Of a DNA stretch of 64,000 nucleotides, positions 6,571 through 53,075 are shown in pieces. Location of the stretch: contig CAVXWP010000015.1 of NCBI GenBank assembly GCA_963765495.1, forward strand, positions 1 through 64,000, given 5' to 3'. Each line of letters opens with the position of its first letter. The first letter of the stretch is position 1. The notes beneath the pieces were generated by a model, which was not told the origin of the DNA, searched no databases, and was given only the letters and a program-made list of their open reading frames with translations. Made by a program: the position numbers and the translations under genes. This stretch comes from Blastocatellia bacterium (GTDB lineage Bacteria; Acidobacteriota; Blastocatellia; UBA7656).

Positions 6571-6646
<76 letters not shown>

Positions 6647-18715: not shown

Positions 18716-18825
18716 GTGATTCGTGATTCGTGAAGAGTGATGCGTGACTTTCAGGGAGCCCACGGTTAAAGATTAATTTGCAAACCTGATAAATCACGGA
18801 TCACTCTTCACGAATCACGAATCAC
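18716..18825. repeat. GTGAT(T/G)C-heptamer inverted-repeat element (B1)
   Basis: 32-bp arms 18716-18747 and 18794-18825 with one mismatch; starts immediately after a TGA stop. Confidence 0.9.
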
Positions 18826-19495: not shown

Positions 19496-21201
19496 TCTTA
19501 CTCAACATATCGAATTTTGCTCTCATAGAGAATTTGCAGGTCGAATTCGACCGGGGGCTTAACCTGTTGACGGGTGAAACCGGATCGGGCAAATCCATAC
19601 TCGTTGATGCGCTGGGTCTGTTGATCGGAGGCCGGTCCTCATCCGATTTGATCAAGGCGGGCCAGTCACGCGCATTCATCGAGGGGCTTTTTTCGGTGGG
19701 CCGGAATGCCGAACTCGAAGAGTTGCTCCTTTCGGCGGGCATCGCCTTTGACCCCAAACCGGAAAGCGAAATCCTGATCCGCCGCGAGCTTTCAACGGGC
19801 GGTCGCAACAAGATATTCATAAATCATCAGCTTGCCACTCAATCCTTGTTGCGTGATCTCAGACCTTTCCTCGTAGACATTCACGGCCAGGGCGATCAGC
19901 AGACTCTCTTCAATCCCGATACGCATCTCGAATTACTCGACGCATACGCGGGTGGCGCGGATCTCCGTCAGGAAGTCGCCCGCCTCTACAATTGCTGGAA
20001 TGCGCTCAGACGCGAGCTTGATGATCTCCGTCAGGACGAGGCCGAAAAATTTCAATTGATCGACATTCTGCGGTTTCAGATAGACGAGCTTGAGCGTGCC
20101 CATCTGGTCGCGGGCGAAGACGAGCAACTCGAAGAGGAACGGCGGCGATTGACCAATGTCGAAAAGCTCTCGGCGCTGTGTGCCGAAAGCTTCGGGCTGA
20201 CTTATGAGGACACCGATTCGGCCATCGCCCGCATAGGCCAGGCGACCCGACGAGTCGAAGAACTGGCCGATTACGAATCGAGCTTCCGCGGATATATCGA
20301 GGGCCTGAATACCGCTCGCGCCATGCTGGAAGACCTGGCATTTTCACTCCGAGATTTTGCCGACCGGCTGGAATATTCCCCTGAACGGCTGGCGGAAGTG
20401 GAGGCGAGGCTGGTGGAAATCTCGCGATTGAAGCGCAAGTACGGCGGGTCAATCGAATCTGCGCTCGAGCATCACGCGCGATCCGAAGAGCGATTGAACA
20501 ATATAGAAAAGTCCGACGAACGCGAAAGAGAACTCAATCGTGAACTTGCGCGTGCCTCGGCCAGTTATCTTGAAGCGGCGCGTCGCCTTCATCACGACCG
20601 GGTCAGCGCGGCAAAGTCCTTTGAACAGGAAATCGTGCGCGATATGGCCGAAGTCGCAATGGAAAGCGCACGGTTTCAGGTGCAGATTACTACCGATTCG
20701 GAGGAAGAACTGAACGTCTCAACTTCAAGTAGTTTTACGCCCAGAGGCATCGACAGGGTGGAGTTTTACTTTTCAGCAAACGTGGGCGAAGGAGTGCGCC
20801 CGCTTGCCAAAGTAGCTTCGGGCGGCGAAGCTTCGCGATTGATGCTCGTTCTCAAAACGATTGCCAACGCCTCGGAATTTCCGCGCACTATAGTCTTTGA
20901 CGAGATTGATACAGGCATAGGAGGGCGCGTATCTGAAGCGGTCGGGGTCAAGCTCAGGAAACTCTCTGAGACAAATCAGGTGCTGTGCGTCACCCATCAG
21001 CCGCAGATAGCCAGATTTGCGGATTCGCATTTGCTGGTTCGAAAAGAGGTCGTGGCCAATCGCACCGAGGTCTGTGTAGAAAAGCTCGACCGGCGAAGTC
21101 GCGTCGAAGAGATCGCCCGCATGCTTACGGGTGCCGAAATAACCGAGACCGCTCGCCGCCACGCCAGAGAAATGCTCAGGCCCGTGATACGTGATGCGTA
21201 A
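19489..21201 (+). CDS. recN: DNA repair protein RecN
   Basis: LTGETGSGKS, IHGQ, ASGGEASR, FDEIDTGIGG, VTHQPQIA. Confidence 0.97.
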   Translation: MLILLNISNFALIENLQVEFDRGLNLLTGETGSGKSILVDALGLLIGGRSSSDLIKAGQSRAFIEGLFSVGRNAELEELLLSAGIAFDPKPESEILIRRELSTGGRNKIFINHQLATQSLLRDLRPFLVDIHGQGDQQTLFNPDTHLELLDAYAGGADLRQEVARLYNCWNALRRELDDLRQDEAEKFQLIDILRFQIDELERAHLVAGEDEQLEEERRRLTNVEKLSALCAESFGLTYEDTDSAIARIGQATRRVEELADYESSFRGYIEGLNTARAMLEDLAFSLRDFADRLEYSPERLAEVEARLVEISRLKRKYGGSIESALEHHARSEERLNNIEKSDERERELNRELARASASYLEAARRLHHDRVSAAKSFEQEIVRDMAEVAMESARFQVQITTDSEEELNVSTSSSFTPRGIDRVEFYFSANVGEGVRPLAKVASGGEASRLMLVLKTIANASEFPRTIVFDEIDTGIGGRVSEAVGVKLRKLSETNQVLCVTHQPQIARFADSHLLVRKEVVANRTEVCVEKLDRRSRVEEIARMLTGAEITETARRHAREMLRPVIRDA

Positions 21202-21305
21202 TGCGCGATCCGTGAAAAGTGATGCGTGACTTTCAGGAAGGCCACGGTTAAAGATAAATCGCAAATCTGGCAAATCACGAATCACGAATCACGAATCACG
21301 TATCA
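21183..21305. repeat. GTGAT(T/G)C-heptamer inverted-repeat element (B2), overlapping the recN stop
   Basis: GTGATAC/GTGATGC arm and (GAATCAC)n arm; spacer nearly identical to B1. Confidence 0.85.
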
Positions 21306-31707: not shown

Positions 31708-31838
31708 AGGGATGAGGGATGAGGGATGAGGGATGAAAAGAACTCTTACGAGCTGTCTTAATAACAGGTAAGATGCTTTTCACCGCAATCTCAATAATCT
31801 CAATTTAGAGTCCTTTTCATCCCTCATCCCTCATCCCT
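31708..31838. repeat. (AGGGATG)4...(CATCCCT)3 inverted heptamer element (A1)
   Basis: Read directly; sub-terminal AAAAGAACTCT/AGAGTCCTTTT pairing; contains the thioesterase stop. Confidence 0.92.
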
Positions 31839-32254
31839 CCTGAAATCCTTATGTATGTCAGCAGTCCCTTTGCGGCGAGACGCCCTTTTGCGTCGTGCAC
31901 GTCGCACTCGGCTACGATGATGCGGCGTCCGTCGCGCAGAAGGCGGGCATCGGCCACGATGCGCCCTTCGCGGATCGCTGACAGATAATTAACCTTCATC
32001 TCGACCGTTGTGAAGCGGTCCCCGGGTTCGGATACGCTCATTATGGCAAAGGCTACGGCGGTGTCTATAAGGCTTGCGGTTGCGCCGCCGTGCATCACTC
32101 CCTGTAATTGCCTGAGTTCCTGTCTTACTTCCACGCTGAGACGCGCGCGGCCCGGCTCGATGGAATCAATCTCGATCCCGAGCAGTTGCGGAAAGTGATT
32201 CTCTTCGAATTTCTCTCTTATGGCCTGTTCTCGCTCAGGTGTTATTTCCATCAA
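31817..32254 (-). CDS. PaaI-family hotdog thioesterase
   Basis: GVMHGGATASLID, TVEMKVNYL. Confidence 0.9.
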   Translation of the reverse strand: MMEITPEREQAIREKFEENHFPQLLGIEIDSIEPGRARLSVEVRQELRQLQGVMHGGATASLIDTAVAFAIMSVSEPGDRFTTVEMKVNYLSAIREGRIVADARLLRDGRRIIVAECDVHDAKGRLAAKGLLTYIRISGGMRDEG

Positions 32255-38070: not shown

Positions 38071-38170
38071 TGGGTGATGCGAACTCTGATTCGTGATTCG
38101 TGATTTACAAGGCTTGCAATATGTCCGTATCAGCCCATCTCCCTATAAAATCACGAATCACAAATCAGAA
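38067..38170. repeat. B-family element (B5), apparently in reverse orientation, overlapping the stop codon at 38068-38070
   Basis: GTGATGGGTGATGC..TGATTCGTGATTCGTGATTT ... AAATCACGAATCACAAATCAGA. Confidence 0.75.
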
Positions 38171-38196
38171 TTCATTGACCATAGAGTGAGGACGAC

Positions 38197-40312: not shown

Positions 40313-40441
40313 AGGGATGAGGGATGAGGGATGAGGGATGAACCGGACTGTGGCGTGAGATCTCGGTAAAAAGCGGCTCGCTAGTTATCAAGATAAACCC
40401 CGACAGTTCAGTTCATCCCTCATCCCTCATCCCTCATCCCT
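40313..40441. repeat. (AGGGATG)4...(CATCCCT)4 inverted heptamer element (A2)
   Basis: Read directly; contains the hemF stop codon. Confidence 0.93.
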
Positions 40442-47385: not shown

Positions 47386-50300
47386 CTAGCCTAACCCTAA
47401 CCTTCGCCTGATTGCTTCAATCGATCTATCATTTATTAAAGCAAACCAGACCTTTTCAACCTGCGATTCGGTGGCTTTGTCGAAGCTTTCCGCCACAACG
47501 CCGTTTGACGCGGGCACAAGAACCACATTGCCGACCGACCCGTTCAGGGCTACAAACGAGGTGTCAACCAGCAACGGATAGGAAGGCGCTTTCTGGCTCG
47601 TGTAGAAGCGTGTGCCGTTCTTGTAATACTTGACGACGCCTCCCTCTACCGCGATGCGGAAAACGTCTCCGGTCGCATACGACAGGTCCCACTTATAAAC
47701 ATTATTCTCACGAACGGCGGCGATGCCTATGTCGGTCAACTTGATGCCGAAATCAATGTCTTCCGGCGTAGTGTCGTCATTGCCCTTGCTCAAGCCGATG
47801 TACCGCTCCTTGTTCGTTTCCGTGGCCGTGAACTCCATATAGCCGTCGCCTGATACGAGAACCTGTTGAGAGACTGCCCCGGCATCCGGCGAATCGTCCC
47901 GGCCGGAACTCTTTCTGAGCGAATTGCCCGTAGCCGTGCAATTGACGATACTCGTCCAGACCACGGCCTGGCTTCCGCCGCCGCCGCCACCGCCGCCGCT
48001 TGAAGAAGTGGCGAAAGTGAAATCTGCCGACACAGCTTGATTACCAGCCGCGTCCCTGGACTTGACTCTGAAGTGATAGGTAGTGCCCGAAGACAACCCC
48101 GTGAGCGCAAGAGAATGGCTTGTGACAAGAGAGGTGTTAACGGGAGTCGAAGAGCCGTAAGAGGTGGTCGAGCCGTACTCTACCTGAGAATCGCTCGCCT
48201 CGTTAGTGGTCCAGTTTACACTCGCTCCGCTCGATGTGAGATTCCCGCTCGCCACGTTGCTGATCACGGGCGGCGTGGTGTCTCCCGGTGGCGGCGGCGG
48301 AGGAGGAGGAGGAGCCGACCCGTCTGCCTTCAATTCGACTACAAAGGCATCCACACGACCCGAGCCTAAGGACTGGCCCCAGTTGGAGCTGAACATAAAC
48401 CATCGCCCGTCCTGGCTCACGTTGCCTTTAGGGAGCGCGCCGAAATCGACCGGCACACTGCGATGATGCGCGATACGCCAGACGGTAGTTTGTGTGCCGT
48501 CGGTGCGAACCGCGATTATTTCGTTATCCCATGCGCGCTGCGCGAGCCCCCGGTCGTTTCTGTATGTCGAAATCAGGACCGGCGCGAGCGCGTTTGCCTG
48601 CGCGTTGTTCCACGAAAGATGGCTGTCTATTTCATACTGCGAGGGCGTGAGCAACGGCGATATCAACTGCGTGATAGCGCCAAGGTTTGACAGGTTGAGC
48701 GAACGCCGCTGCCATACCGCGCCGTCACCCGCGCCATCGTGGTTGAGCATATAGCCGAATGCGCCTACCTTGTGGCCGCCCGAAGACGGAGCCAGCGCGA
48801 TATTGCCCGTCTGCGTATCCCATATCACCTGCCCGTTTGGACCGTCGGATGGCGATATGGTAACGTACCGCCCGCCTTTTTCGAGACGCGCATTATGAAT
48901 ATGCCATCCCAGAGACATGTTTGTGGGGTTGCCGTTGACTCTTGAAGTCACCGTATTGAGAAGAGTCTGCTGCCCCGTGGTCTTGTCCCAGACTAGGATG
49001 TAGAAATGCTGATCCTGCGACTGTCCTCCGAAATAGGTGCAGAGCTTCTGATTGACGCCTTCGGAAAGATCGCCCGTACTCCCGCTCAATCCCTGCACGA
49101 CCGTATCCAGATTAAGCAGTGTCGTGTAGGTATCGGTCTGGAAGTTGTACTGCACGATAGAACGCCCGGCCGCCCCGCCTGTACCGTAGATCAGATTGGG
49201 ATCGGAATGGCTAAATTCCGGGTTGCTCAAATTGAGCAGCAATCCGCCGCTTTCGTTGGATGTATCGCCTAAGCGCGAGGCAACCATAGTCGAAGGATTG
49301 AACGAATAAGGAACGATTTCGCCGCCTTCGCCCGTGATGAAGAAAAGCGTGCTGTTTGTATTCCAGGTGTTCTGTTCGGAAGAACTCGGACTGAAGAATG
49401 AGCGATTAGGCCGGTCAGGTCTCGTGTTGGCATCCGTGATCCGGCGTATGCGTGAGCCAAATGTCGGGTCCGTGATGAGCGTCCCGCGTCCCGTAGCGCC
49501 GCCCATGTTTGGCAAAGACGGCTCTCTTCTGGTGCTGCGGTCGGTTAAGGCGTTATAAGACATCGGCACGCTGCTTCCGCCGCCGCCACCACCGCCGCCG
49601 CTTGAAGAAGTGGCGAAAGTGAAATCTGCCGAGACGGCTTGATTACCAGCCGCGTCCCTGGACTTGACTCTGAAGTGATAGGTAGTGCCCGAAGACAACC
49701 CTGTGAGCGCAAGAGAATGGCTTGTGACAAGAGAGGTGTTAACGGGAGTCGAAGAGCCGTAAGAGGTGGTCGAGCCGTACTCTACCTGAGAATCGCTCGC
49801 CTCGTTAGTGGTCCAGTTTACACTCGCTCCGCTCGATGTGAGATTCCCGCTCGCCACGTTGCTGATCACGGGCGGCTGTGTGTCTCCGCCCGGCGCTGTC
49901 GTGAAAGTATAATCTCTTGAAACGCCAGCATTGCCCGACGGGTCTTTTGACCTCACGCGGAAATGATAGAGCGTGAGCGGCGAAAGCCCGCCAAAGGCTA
50001 CACTATGATTCAGCACCATTGCGGGGTTGAGCGCAGACACGCTGCCGTAGGCGGTCGTGGTTCCAAACTCCACCTGCGTATCGCTCGGCTCATTTGTGCG
50101 CCAGGCAACAACAACGCCCGTGGCCGAAACATTGGAAACGACTACGTTGCTGATCTCAGGCGGCTTTGTATCTTTTGGCGTTATCCGCACAACGGACGAA
50201 GCATTGACCACCGGGTTTGCGGCGCTTGCCGCCATTACGGTAAATGAGCCGGTCGCGGCAGGCGCTGTATATATTCCTTCCGTTGAGATCGCGCCGCCGC

Positions 50301-52170
50301 TTGCGGTCCAGTTGAGAGCACTGGTTGCGCCTCCTGTGACAAGAGCGGCGAATTGCATGACGCCGCCTGCGCCGACTTCCGTATCGGCGGGGCTTATCGA
50401 AACGACCGGATTGAAGCCCGCGCCCGCTATCATTGCATTGCTGATTTGAGAACTCTTATTCACAAGCGAGGCAGTGACGAGTAGCGGATAAACAGGCTGG
50501 AGCGTGCTCGTATAGAAAAGCTGGTTGTTTTTGTAATACTTGACCACGCCCGATTCAATCGCGATGCGAAAGACGTAGCCGACCTTGTATTTGGTCTTTT
50601 TCTTCGCTTCGCCTTTCTCGTACACAAAAGCCTTTTTCTTCGTGAACTGGATGGCAAAATCAATATCGGTCGCCGCTTGATGTATAGAGTTCGAGTTGCT
50701 CAGACCGCACCAGCGTTCTTTTGTATTGTCGTGAATGGTGAATTCCAACTGGCCGTCCCCGGATTGAATCGATTGCATAGAGGTGGCTCTTGCATCGTCT
50801 TCGTCATCCAACCCGCTTGTCTTCTGCAAAGTGTTTTCGAGCGGAGTGCAATTGACCGTGTTGGTCCAGACTACGCTGTCCATCGAAGTCGCACTATTTA
50901 TGGCCGCGATAAAGACGTCTGAGCGCGACGGTCCCGAAAGCGAATTGAAGGCGATAAAGCGACCATCACGCGACAGATTGATCCGAAGGTCCGAGCAATC
51001 TTCCCAGAGGCCGGTTCGAGCATCCGCGAGACGTTCAAGTGTGCCGCTGCCATCTTTCGATATGCGAATCACATCGTTTGAGCGGGCGCGCAAGTCGCCT
51101 ATGACGGGAGCACTATAGAGGTCTCCATTTGTATTCGGATTTGAATCATCGGGCATCCGGGCAAACAACTCATCGGTAGCTGAATTGTAATACCACTGGC
51201 CGGGGCCGAGGTCCGCGCTCGCCTGCTCGGTCAACTCCGCTCCCTTCCATTTCACAAAACCCACGGGGCTATATGTGTAATCACCGCTATCGCTTACGGC
51301 GTGGGTCTTGCTATAGATAGCCGTGCCCGGCAGGTTCACCCAGCCCGAAGCTTGAACCGTGCCCGGTCCTATCCCCAGATAGACATGCCTGCCGGTCGAA
51401 ACTATCGACGGGCAATGCGGCGTTTGGGCATCATTTGGCTGTAAAGATGAAAAGTAATTGAGGCTGTCGCCTGTGGCGCTTGCCGTTCGAAGGCCGCCGT
51501 ATTGAGCGGAGCCCGACCGCTCGCGCAGTGTCTCGAACTTTGCGGCTTCGCCTTCGGCTGATAGATCTGGATTCTCTTTGAGCGGTGTGAACTCTCTTGC
51601 CCGAACATTATAAGCGTAAAGCTCGCCACCTGCTTCTGAATCGCTCAACCCTATCAAGGTATCGGGATCATTTGCGGACCATCGCATTTCGTTAAGCCTG
51701 AATGGCTGTCCGTCAAAGAGCGGCCCTTCCTTTTGAAACGTGAGCGCGGAAGCGTCAAAGCTGTAGAGCGTAGCCACTCCGTCTATGTCTACGAGGAAGC
51801 GTGTCGAGCCGGGATTGAAACTAGAATACCGGGCGCGGGCGACAAGCGGAACCTGTCCGTCGCGCTCATCGGTGACGCGAATTACCTTACTGCCGGTCAG
51901 AGGGTCGGCCACAATGCTGCCCGCCTCAGGCAGCAGGGAATTCAGCCCCGGCTCGGTTCGGGCGAGAGAATCGCTCAGATGAGCGCGGGTGATTCCATCG
52001 CCAAAAATGGATAGAATGATTAAACAGAAAACCGCCATGAATCGCTTTAGCGCGGACTTCGCGCCTGAGTTCTGAGCGCGCTGGCTTTGCCGAGCGCGAG
52101 TCGCTATCAGCTTTAAGCTCTGCGCTGAAAAAGCAGAGCGCACGGAGAGTATATTATTTTGTTTTGCCAT
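47386..52170 (-). CDS. Large secreted multidomain protein (two propeller-like regions, Ig-like domain, three FN3-like domains, two beta-sandwich-like repeats); adhesin or matrix protein candidate
   Basis: Hydrophobic N-terminal segment; W.TNE.SD.QVE.G.T..YG FN3-type repeats; SRDGRFIAFNS and SQDGRWFMFSSNW; Gly and Pro linkers. Confidence 0.8.
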   Translation of the reverse strand: MAKQNNILSVRSAFSAQSLKLIATRARQSQRAQNSGAKSALKRFMAVFCLIILSIFGDGITRAHLSDSLARTEPGLNSLLPEAGSIVADPLTGSKVIRVTDERDGQVPLVARARYSSFNPGSTRFLVDIDGVATLYSFDASALTFQKEGPLFDGQPFRLNEMRWSANDPDTLIGLSDSEAGGELYAYNVRAREFTPLKENPDLSAEGEAAKFETLRERSGSAQYGGLRTASATGDSLNYFSSLQPNDAQTPHCPSIVSTGRHVYLGIGPGTVQASGWVNLPGTAIYSKTHAVSDSGDYTYSPVGFVKWKGAELTEQASADLGPGQWYYNSATDELFARMPDDSNPNTNGDLYSAPVIGDLRARSNDVIRISKDGSGTLERLADARTGLWEDCSDLRINLSRDGRFIAFNSLSGPSRSDVFIAAINSATSMDSVVWTNTVNCTPLENTLQKTSGLDDEDDARATSMQSIQSGDGQLEFTIHDNTKERWCGLSNSNSIHQAATDIDFAIQFTKKKAFVYEKGEAKKKTKYKVGYVFRIAIESGVVKYYKNNQLFYTSTLQPVYPLLVTASLVNKSSQISNAMIAGAGFNPVVSISPADTEVGAGGVMQFAALVTGGATSALNWTASGGAISTEGIYTAPAATGSFTVMAASAANPVVNASSVVRITPKDTKPPEISNVVVSNVSATGVVVAWRTNEPSDTQVEFGTTTAYGSVSALNPAMVLNHSVAFGGLSPLTLYHFRVRSKDPSGNAGVSRDYTFTTAPGGDTQPPVISNVASGNLTSSGASVNWTTNEASDSQVEYGSTTSYGSSTPVNTSLVTSHSLALTGLSSGTTYHFRVKSRDAAGNQAVSADFTFATSSSGGGGGGGGSSVPMSYNALTDRSTRREPSLPNMGGATGRGTLITDPTFGSRIRRITDANTRPDRPNRSFFSPSSSEQNTWNTNSTLFFITGEGGEIVPYSFNPSTMVASRLGDTSNESGGLLLNLSNPEFSHSDPNLIYGTGGAAGRSIVQYNFQTDTYTTLLNLDTVVQGLSGSTGDLSEGVNQKLCTYFGGQSQDQHFYILVWDKTTGQQTLLNTVTSRVNGNPTNMSLGWHIHNARLEKGGRYVTISPSDGPNGQVIWDTQTGNIALAPSSGGHKVGAFGYMLNHDGAGDGAVWQRRSLNLSNLGAITQLISPLLTPSQYEIDSHLSWNNAQANALAPVLISTYRNDRGLAQRAWDNEIIAVRTDGTQTTVWRIAHHRSVPVDFGALPKGNVSQDGRWFMFSSNWGQSLGSGRVDAFVVELKADGSAPPPPPPPPPGDTTPPVISNVASGNLTSSGASVNWTTNEASDSQVEYGSTTSYGSSTPVNTSLVTSHSLALTGLSSGTTYHFRVKSRDAAGNQAVSADFTFATSSSGGGGGGGGSQAVVWTSIVNCTATGNSLRKSSGRDDSPDAGAVSQQVLVSGDGYMEFTATETNKERYIGLSKGNDDTTPEDIDFGIKLTDIGIAAVRENNVYKWDLSYATGDVFRIAVEGGVVKYYKNGTRFYTSQKAPSYPLLVDTSFVALNGSVGNVVLVPASNGVVAESFDKATESQVEKVWFALINDRSIEAIRRRLGLG
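47971..49876. repeat. 304-bp near-identical intragenic direct repeat (47971-48274 and 49573-49876)
   Basis: Copies match except about four positions seen by eye; both encode the same FN3-like domain and Gly linker. Confidence 0.92.
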
Positions 52171-52365
52171 CTCATACCCCAATTGCCACCATCTGGCCCG
52201 ACAGGGTGCGGACGCTTTGCGCGGTCACGCACACAGTCGAAATCCGACGGTGATCTATTTCTGCAGTTCGAAGCCTGAGGCTTCTGCTGTCGCTAGGAGC
52301 CACCTTGGGGACCTGTTGGTCTTTAAGTGAGATGGACCTGTTGGGGCGGGGAGGGTATCTCACTT

Positions 52366-52566
52366 CGGCAGCCAGACATCCTCTGGAGGGATGAGGGATG
52401 AGGGATGAGGGATGAAAAAGACTCTAAAGACAAATTCCAATTAATTGGCTTGACCTATTATCGGAGTATTTCCCTAAAGTCCTATTCATCCCTCATCCCT
52501 CATCCCTCATCCCTCAAAAGGCCTTGGCTTTGCGACCCAGGATTACTCCTGGTGTGCCTTTATCGG
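52366..52566 (-). ncRNA. c-di-GMP-I (GEMM-I) riboswitch with a ~128-nt heptamer element in P3
   Basis: Minus strand: CGAUAAAG-GCACA-CCAGGA-GUAA-UCCUGG-GUCGCAA-AGCCAAGGCCUUUUG-[insert]-CCAGAGGAUGUCUGGCU-GCCG; GNRA-capped P2, GCAAA junction, G at the position equivalent to G20. Confidence 0.82.
52387..52514. repeat. (AGGGATG)4...(CATCCCT)4 inverted heptamer element (A3)
   Basis: Read directly; inner ends closely match A4 in the opposite orientation. Confidence 0.93.
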
Positions 52567-52823
52567 TGAAACATCCGCTCGCGCGATTGGCGTGTGAGCT
52601 TGTCAATCGGGCTCGCAGATTCGATTAAATCGGTAACAGATTGTGAAATGACGCATCCGGGGTATCGAATCGAAGTAGTCATTCACAATCCCGGCCGATA
52701 AACCTTCTCAAACACAACGGAACAAACTTTATCTAATGCCCTGAAACGCTTCGGGCTTCGCGCAAATCCGAAATTTAACGCGGCCTGTGGGGCGATAAAG
52801 AGAGAGCCGTCCTGTAATCAATA

Positions 52824-52839
52824 TGCAATCAATGTTCCG
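52824..52839 (-). promoter_or_regulatory. Candidate sigma54 promoter for the riboswitch leader
   Basis: Minus strand CGGAACATTGATTGCA: GG-N10-GC with perfect TTGCA, imperfect -24 box. Confidence 0.45.
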
Positions 52840-52948
52840 CCCTGAATGGGGTATTTGTTGGCATTTGCAGGTCCATTTTTTCCCCGGGAGGAAGAAATTA
52901 CCACACCCCGGCGCACCGACTGTGTAGAAATTATCTACGCCGCTTTTG

Positions 52949-53075
52949 AGGGATGAGGGATGAGGGATGAGGGATGAATAGGACTTTAAGGAAATATTTT
53001 GATGAAATGGTTTGACCAGTTACCGCAGTGTCCCCGACAGTCTTTTTCATCCCTCATCCCTCATCCCTCATCCCT
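52949..53075. repeat. (AGGGATG)4...(CATCCCT)4 inverted heptamer element (A4)
   Basis: Read directly; inner ends AATAGGACTTTAAGGAAATA and AGTCTTTTT. Confidence 0.93.

Follow-up and report, generated by a model that had tools for sequence, protein, structure and literature searches.

The 64-kb window, meaning the whole stretch of 64,000 nucleotides that was analysed, carries on its minus strand a complete c-di-GMP-I (GEMM-I) aptamer in the leader of a long gene for a secreted-type protein (Table 1), whose product combines FN3 and purple-acid-phosphatase-N-like Ig domains with Gly- and Pro-rich linkers. The sequence and its two separated halves are as the sequence-only reading had described them, with the RNA reading on the minus strand. 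Between the halves, the P3-distal segment consists, in order, of CCUUUUG, four AGGGAUG units, a 72-nt centre, four CAUCCCU units and CCAGAGG, so that a heptamer-armed hairpin is enclosed by a short flanking stem.

Table 1. Features of the riboswitch leader, the gene behind it and the heptamer-armed elements of the window.
Feature	Position	Strand	Details
c-di-GMP-I aptamer, complete	52571..52358	-	214 nt including the P3 insert
P1 outer strands	52571-52566 and 52363-52358	-	UUUCAC and GUGAGA
Aptamer 5' half	52571..52522	-	UUUCACCGAUAAAGGCACA, then P2, then GUCGCAAAGCCAAGG
P2 hairpin	52537..52552	-	CCAGGA-GUAA-UCCUGG, GNRA-type loop; Rfam alignment and MFE fold
Junction GUCGCAAAGCCAAGG	52522..52536	-	proximal P3 5' strand and internal loop; aligns with Rfam consensus GACGCAAAgCcAcgG
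P3-distal segment	52380..52521	-	142 nt, unbranched hairpin atop P3; from the fold
Heptamer-armed hairpin element	52387..52514		128 nt; (AGGGATG)x4, 72-nt centre, (CATCCCT)x4
(AGGGAUG)x4 arm	52514..52487	-	
(CAUCCCU)x4 arm	52414..52387	-	
Aptamer 3' half	52358..52379	-	AUGUCUGGCUGCCGAAGUGAGA; 3' core AUGUCUGGCUGCCGA same in short-P3 relative L164
Platform hairpin	52327..52363	-	GUGAGAU...AUCUCAC; 5' strand doubles as P1 3' strand; long fold, conserved in type-A loci
SD-like GGGG, then UGAGAUGG	52167..52180	-	UGAGAUGG at 52174-52167, with AUG at 52170-52168
Regulated gene	47386..52170	-	~1594 aa, secreted-type; PF16656 1.7e-25, PF00041 5.7e-16
Second element copy	52947..53075		~380 nt upstream of the riboswitch, same intergenic region
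Further element copy	31708..31839		
Further element copy	40313..40441		
tRNA gene	6574-6646	-	64.3 bits

The conserved core nucleotides of the Rfam family RF01051 are present on both sides of P3 (GGCA..., ACGCAAAGCC, GGCUGCC). The 3' core GGCUGCCGAA, at 52373..52364, is identical to that of L164, a relative with a short P3 in which Rfam aligns the 3' core to GcUgCCgaa; the sole difference between the two cores is the P2 loop, GUGA in L164 and GUAA in the window. We take the initial G of GGCA, together with CC in GCC, to be the ligand-pairing positions (G20 and C92 of Vc2), and the G rather than A at the G20 position presumably indicates specificity for c-di-GMP rather than cGAMP. The three-helix GEMM-I fold (P1, P2 with its GNRA loop, and P3) is recovered in the minimum free energy (MFE) fold of 52358-52572 on the minus strand (215 nt), with the element stacked on P3 and an energy of -122.2 kcal/mol (z = -12.7 against 200 shuffles). 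Folded alone, the P3-distal segment reaches -97.5 kcal/mol with its first and last nucleotides paired. The P3 pairings proposed earlier stood in part: the distal CCUU.../...AGG stem is supported, since 45, 45, 45 and 42 of 45 relatives form its first, second, third and fourth pair, respectively, and the first pair covaries (C-G in 26, U-A in 18 and U-G in one of the 45), whereas the proposed GGC/GUC pairing falls within a conserved internal loop, CCAAGG / AUGNCUGG, and found no support as a helix. The junction GUCGCAAAGCCAAGG is invariant in 46 relatives, and the P2 stem covaries in loci outside the pattern-selected set described below (CCGGGA/UCCCGG in L036, CCGAAA/UUUCGG in L123). Judged from these alignments, both aptamer halves are as conserved as those of the short-P3 relatives. 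As the repeat is self-complementary and lies beyond the ligand pocket and the region in which the P2 loop docks with P3, its presence would merely make P3 longer and leave the core intact.

Detection of this aptamer by the standard model is precarious. Rfam places RF01051 at 52568..52496 on the minus strand with 35.3 bits, which barely reaches the gathering cut-off of 35, and misaligns the 3' half onto a heptamer arm, the true 3' half lying 142 nt further on. Natural relatives with a short P3 therefore served as controls for the split-aptamer reading, and that reading was borne out: all 13 loci with a P3-distal segment of 12-57 nt, which share a near-identical core, are detected by Rfam at 44-57 bits with GGCUGCCGAA correctly aligned. 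Furthermore, a covariance model (R1), built on 46 loci of other genomes with a hand-set core structure and leaving out the three loci of the window's own genome, matches the window along its full length (52359-52571 on the minus strand, model positions 1-162; 128.5 bits, E 1.3e-35) and only once in the 64 kb, while the two paralogues of the same genome score 128.7 and 116.1 bits. Part of the R1 score is derived from repeat-like model positions, and thus it speaks for the architecture and not for ligand binding. The outcome can be broken down by segment length. At the Rfam gathering score, the 13 loci with a segment of up to 57 nt were all found and correctly aligned; the 19 loci with 67-96 nt were divided into eight correct, three marginal and misaligned, and eight missed; and the 17 loci with at least 116 nt into one correct, four marginal and misaligned (the window among them), and 12 missed. 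Overall, 22 of the 49 loci were correct, seven marginal and misaligned, and 20 missed. The earlier suspicion that standard searches overlook such aptamers is thus substantiated, and repeat hairpins at the P3 tip often hide these riboswitches from them.

The insert had been taken for a hairpin element, and the search for copies together with the MFE fold confirmed it as a dispersed one that stacks on P3. The arms are 100% complementary over 23-24 nt, and longer arms 82% over 62 nt. The 21-mer (AGGGATG)x3 occurs 15 times in the window, as against none in 100 shuffles, and four copies of the element lie within these 64 kb. Throughout the 7.3-Mb genome, approximately 58 full copies and about 14 solo arms were counted, 73-90% identical to the riboswitch copy; the copies measure 108-135 nt (a few are longer), carry up to five units per arm and share the centre of about 72 nt. 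Several features of the inverted heptameric repeat pairs known from Xanthomonas and Nostoc are found here, namely convergent 7-nt arrays, the capacity to form a stem-loop and a dispersed occurrence. The genome is rich in such sequences in general, with roughly 716 period-7 arrays, built from many different units, in a heuristic count. About nine of its AGGGATG elements (for example C1:268571, C4:296362, C15:31708 and C16:88356) are wrapped in a further layer, with (A/G)GGATTTCAGG ahead of the arm and CCTGAAATCCCT behind it, which points to a longer, composite form of the element. Another family of heptamer hairpins, armed with CGTGATG / AATCACG, is present in the window in at least three copies (18716-18825, 21183-21305 and 38087-38171), and its AATCACG-type unit forms about 39 arrays genome-wide by our own count. 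At four loci of the same genome, GATTTTR hairpins are flanked by GCTTCGCGC...GCGCGAAGC palindromes.

Downstream of the aptamer, the expression platform apparently acts on the start codon, some 190 nt away, and not via a terminator. UGAGAUGG, which contains the start codon, is complementary to the platform strand CCAUCUCA (52335-52328). This complementarity is conserved in 12 loci designated type A, the window's included, in all of which GAGATGG follows the aptamer at a distance of 141-204 nt. In nine of the 12, the ATG of GAGATGG opens a long ORF (133 to 507 aa could be read, and no ORF reaches a stop inside its locus), most of these ORFs having a signal-peptide-like start. In the remaining three (L150, L005 and L148), it opens only an ORF of 16-51 codons that starts with MVNRTT, possibly a leader peptide or else the result of a wrongly placed start. 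Behind about half of the riboswitches stands, instead, a conserved type-B platform (GUGAAGUUGAA...UUUUCAACUCCAC), which replaces the GUGAGAUG...CAUCUCAC hairpin (L003, L006, L008, L012 and L015 are among these loci). Scans of 51950-52950 yielded one sigma-70 promoter-like match, not above the shuffle expectation and misplaced for the leader, and one terminator-like match, likewise not above the shuffle expectation, with none in the leader itself. The strand shared by P1 and the platform, the start-codon complement and the lack of a terminator together predict translational repression by c-di-GMP, and the leader looks like a translational switch in which CCAUCUCAC would pair with the start-codon region. 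Binding of c-di-GMP would stabilise P1, the 3' strand of which is GUGAGA; CCAUCUCAC would thereby be freed to pair with UGAGAUGG at the start codon, and translation would be turned off. With the ligand absent, GUGAGAU would pair with AUCUCAC and the start codon would stay open. We infer both the binding of the ligand and the direction of this switch.

The arrangement seen at the window is not confined to it. Three GEMM-I-like loci are present in the genome (on contigs C15, which is the window, C10 and C12), and all three carry an element at the same P3 site. The stems that flank the inserts differ in sequence and are nevertheless complementary in each case (CCUUUUG/CCAGAGG, CCUUCGG/CCGAAGG and CCUUUUG/CCGGAGG). 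A tree of 55 element centres groups the C10 and C12 copies as sisters (support 100/93), although the expression platforms of these two riboswitches differ, and places the window copy among copies outside riboswitches; two origins for the three riboswitch-borne copies would be the most parsimonious account of this tree. At a larger scale, this clade of riboswitches is carried by Blastocatellia (Acidobacteriota), and a family survey recovered 50 loci in 34 of 53 genomes and 17 of 20 genera, 49 of them analysed with both halves and one running off a contig end. Loci were found through a 37-nt pattern of the 5' half, so P2 conservation within the set exists by construction and decayed riboswitches, which would lack an intact 5' half, are invisible to the survey; 19 of the 53 genomes gave no match to this pattern. 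The counts given here were taken over related genomes and are non-independent samples.

Across the 49 loci, the P3-distal segment ranges from 12 to 162 nt, exceeding 38 nt in 40 and 82 nt in 29. The nine loci with at most 38 nt have the same core and platform. The segment closes on its own first and last nucleotides in 47 of the 49 and forms a single hairpin in 43, and in 19 each of its halves contains, by a strict rule, 18 nt or more of period-7 sequence. For comparison, among the matches listed for GEMM-I loci of other phyla with the same 5' core, the median distance between the halves is 28.5 nt and 85 of 88 loci do not exceed 78 nt; of the three that do, one is a family-type locus and two arise from errors of the heuristic that located the 3' half, which among these matches failed for 19 of 107 loci and mis-assigned two. 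By eye, no repeat inserts were seen in the first 75 nt downstream of the aptamer (the region of the platform hairpin) in the 49 loci, as is expected from purifying selection elsewhere and tolerance at the P3 tip. Nested inserts occur in the P3 of L143, L144, L171, L161 and L008, where the heptamer arms enclose either a second palindrome, GC-rich and of the GCGC..CGCG type, or another heptamer family, and a tip once filled thus attracts further hairpin repeats.

At least six unrelated families of 7-nt units share this one P3 site, as assigned partly by eye: ARGGATG, GATTTTG, AAGGYAA, TCCTGAG / CTCAGCR, CGTGAAT and TATTTGN / AAATAGA. The family is often common to both paralogues of a genome and different between congeneric species; in genus g7, three species have three different families, each in both paralogues. 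What fills the site mostly corresponds to what the genome holds. Three-unit ARGGATG matches number 222 in the window's own genome (G000), 211 in G041, 328 in G001, 74 in G015 and 35 in G007, with at most four elsewhere, and ARGGATG arms are found in the riboswitches of G000, G041, G001 and G015, G007 having no riboswitch match. Similarly, three-unit GATTTTR matches are abundant in G006, G012 and G022 and number 16 in G052, and the riboswitches of all four carry this family. Genomes with neither family mostly have a short P3 (12, 15 and 16 nt in G050, 14 in G057, 28 in G018, 31 in G056 and 34 in G058). There are counter-examples: G003 has 234 GATTTTR matches, yet a non-repeat P3 of 71 nt, and G014 and G016 likewise are rich in heptamer hairpins with a non-heptamer P3, while G005 and G022 have ARGGATG-like arms in a riboswitch and few copies elsewhere. 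Taken together, the distribution fits an opportunistic filling of the site by resident repeats with rapid turnover.

Chance alone does not account for the filling. With about 716 arrays over some 7.3 Mb and three permissive P3 tips totalling about 30 nt, a rough estimate predicts about 0.02 insertions where three are observed, which corresponds to a more than 100-fold over-occupancy; occupancy of P3 family-wide is above 60%. Random neutral insertion by itself is therefore insufficient, and the filling of P3 is not a single neutral accident. Possible causes of the site preference include an insertion bias, gene conversion or copying between paralogues, and selective retention. The element shows one trait of a MITE (miniature inverted-repeat transposable element), being dispersed in copies of uniform size with terminal inverted repeats; nevertheless, 55 of 56 copies have no flanking direct repeat of at least 2 nt, and identity with a classical MITE was rejected for want of this target-site duplication. 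Two genes of the Y1-transposase family PF01797 are present in the genome (138.6 and 38.4 bits). No period-7 array occurs within 2.5 kb of the former, the latter has only one element nearby, 2.1 kb away, and mobilisation of the REP/REPtron type (by a RAYT) was dismissed as neither gene is flanked by repeats. Insertion targeted to existing hairpins was also considered and set aside, because the flanks of the elements are no more complementary than shuffled pairs (2.57 vs 2.45 of 8; 552 of 2000 shuffles reach the observed value). Without target-site duplications, repeat-flanked Y1 transposases or complementary flanks, the element is neither a classical MITE nor a REPtron, and no insertion mechanism that explains the preference for P3 is visible. 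The public sequencing runs listed for this sequence include no RNA run. In three soil-metagenome DNA runs of one study, the matching contigs all end in repeat arms; none of them spans the riboswitch, and no empty-site joint is among them.

On this evidence, the locus is probably a working c-di-GMP-I riboswitch, the P3 tip of which is a strongly favoured harbour for the hairpin repeats of the lineage. A single copy of the AGGGATG-type heptamer-armed hairpin resident in the genome would have taken the place of the apical part of P3, lengthening the helix coaxially by about 56 bp, and the tip would be filled, with fast turnover, from whichever heptamer families a genome holds. That the insertion instead broke the aptamer, leaving a decaying relic that no longer senses c-di-GMP, might be read from the Rfam score at the cut-off and from the displacement of the 3' half by 142 nt; this is extremely unlikely, as the halves are conserved like those of short-P3 relatives, the flanking stem has remained complementary in all three paralogues despite different sequences, neither the platform nor the start-codon complement has been lost, the ORF is still long and intact, and the same architecture persists in 17 of 20 genera. 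It is also very unlikely that a single old insertion in an ancestral P3 was homogenised with other copies by gene conversion and slippage, so that the recurrence is only apparent. The sister relationship of the C10 and C12 copies, in riboswitches with different platforms, does point to conversion or copying between paralogues, no well-supported branch contradicts a single origin of the three copies, and related arm variants (AAGGATG, AGGGATG and AACGATG) occur in several genera. However, the units that share the site elsewhere (GATTTTG, AAGGCAA/AAGGTAA, TCCTGAG, CGTGAAT and TATTTGC-type besides ARGGATG) are unrelated, and homology-driven conversion could hence not have turned one into another, tips of the short tetraloop type coexist at the site with long stems free of repeats, and the junction sequences differ between genomes that share a repeat family.

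The long hairpin may, on the other hand, have been selected because it changes the function of the switch, which we regard as unlikely, though less so than either of the foregoing possibilities. Such tuning could proceed through a new site for RNase III, at which the leader would be cut in two or made unstable, through a slowed or ordered co-transcriptional folding or, for the AGGGAUG arms with their four GGG tracts, through a G-quadruplex that the 5' arm could adopt while the 3' arm has yet to be transcribed. It would be in keeping with an occupancy far beyond random insertion, with the concerted filling of paralogues, with the perfect pairing of the arms over 28 bp and with the RNase III gene that the genome encodes; moreover, G-rich heptamer repeats of Xanthomonas and Nostoc form G-quadruplexes in vitro according to the available part of that study (PMC4692102). 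Against it, the same core and platform are kept by the nine loci whose segment has at most 38 nt, neither sequence, length (up to 162 nt) nor composition relates the inserts to one another, most families (among them GATTTTG, AAGGTAA and AAGGCAA) are devoid of G tracts, and the length of P3 tracks whether a genome has such repeats, for which opportunism is a better fit than need. A duplex of about 56 bp is in any case a likely substrate of RNase III, and the transcript may accordingly not stay in one piece.

Several known systems help to place the favoured harbour reading. Members of RF01051, such as Vc2 of Vibrio cholerae, likewise have a conserved core, a GNRA-type P2 loop, a variable P3 tip and a leader position before a gene for a secreted or surface protein; the window aptamer differs from them in its length (214 nt, compared with a model length of 87), in a P3 lengthened by a 128-nt dispersed repeat and in scoring at the gathering cut-off with a misaligned 3' half. 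Intervening sequences (IVS) in the helices of 23S rRNA are extended hairpins that are removed by RNase III. They resemble the present insert in extending a hairpin at a helix tip with the host fold kept and in forming a long duplex likely to be cut, but the host here is an mRNA leader, in which processing is only predicted and cleavage would part the 5' half of the aptamer from the message. Short tandemly repeated repetitive (STRR) sequences occur in the RNase P RNA of heterocyst-forming cyanobacteria, and the parallel to cyanobacterial heptamer repeats drawn by the sequence-only reading holds as an analogy, the host being a soil acidobacterium and not a cyanobacterium. In the window's own genome, no clean heptamer arms were seen in RNase P RNA (503 nt) or tmRNA (358 nt). 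The RNase P RNA (L185, G000:C1:530752-531254; 503 nt against a 367-position model) does have, in its own P3 region, a small AT-rich palindrome of GATTTCA / TGAAATC-like units, reminiscent of the repeats in the riboswitch P3 of the relatives L162, L165 and L175.

A close published parallel is the P6b stem-loop of the tRNA-Leu(UAA) group I intron of Nostoc, which, as far as the accessible text of the report goes, bears repeats of distinct classes, one of which has repeatedly been replaced by another (PMC4476775). Short repeats extend a variable helix there as here, with independent replacements at the same site (PMC4476775). By the same partial account, the two cases differ in the host lineage (Cyanobacteria and Acidobacteriota), in the host RNA (an intron and a riboswitch aptamer), in that the window insert belongs to an element dispersed throughout the genome, the 72-nt centre of which is conserved, and in that several paralogous hosts in one genome are filled alike here. 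Convergent inverted heptamer pairs, mostly intergenic, have been described for Xanthomonas (GGGAATC; 70-75 pairs per genome) and Nostoc (GGGGA(C/T)T) in the part of PMC4692102 that was accessible. They too consist of tandem 7-nt units in two convergent arrays that can form a stem-loop, and nothing in that part of the paper (PMC4692102) locates them within a riboswitch or another structured RNA; compared with them, many unit families are present per genome here, and the AGGGATG family has a conserved non-repeat centre. In the pneumococcal trp leader, a BOX element lies between two T-box riboswitches, so that riboswitches there share a transcript with a small dispersed hairpin repeat, apparently without loss of regulation (PMC3049150, seen in part). 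The BOX element is, in the portion available, located between aptamers and not within one, and at a single locus with no recurrence across genera. A description of repeats within a c-di-GMP-I aptamer was not found in the literature covered, which mostly excludes subscription journals.

The chief interest of the finding lies in the recurrence at one site and in the blind spot that it reveals in annotation. Because Rfam misses 20 of the 49 loci and misaligns seven, censuses of riboswitches in repeat-rich soil bacteria probably are undercounts. A bolder view, which we hold to be doubtful, is that the P3 tip is a specific landing pad or selected slot in which interchangeable heptamer-hairpin cassettes are swapped, in concert across paralogues, and alter the behaviour of the switch; the routes may be cleavage by RNase III, which would part the aptamer from its message, a changed order of folding, or a choice between quadruplex and hairpin in the AGGGAUG arms. 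If this were true, a selfish repeat family would be a routine evolutionary tuning device for second-messenger sensing. The 49 near-identical c-di-GMP aptamers, with P3 tips that range from a tetraloop to a 162-nt repeat hairpin, constitute a natural experiment on the extra structure that this riboswitch class tolerates and provide ready-made constructs for studies of folding and binding. The roughly estimated excess of filled tips over chance offers a handle on the biology of heptamer hairpins, that is, on how they move, where they land and whether the host makes use of them.
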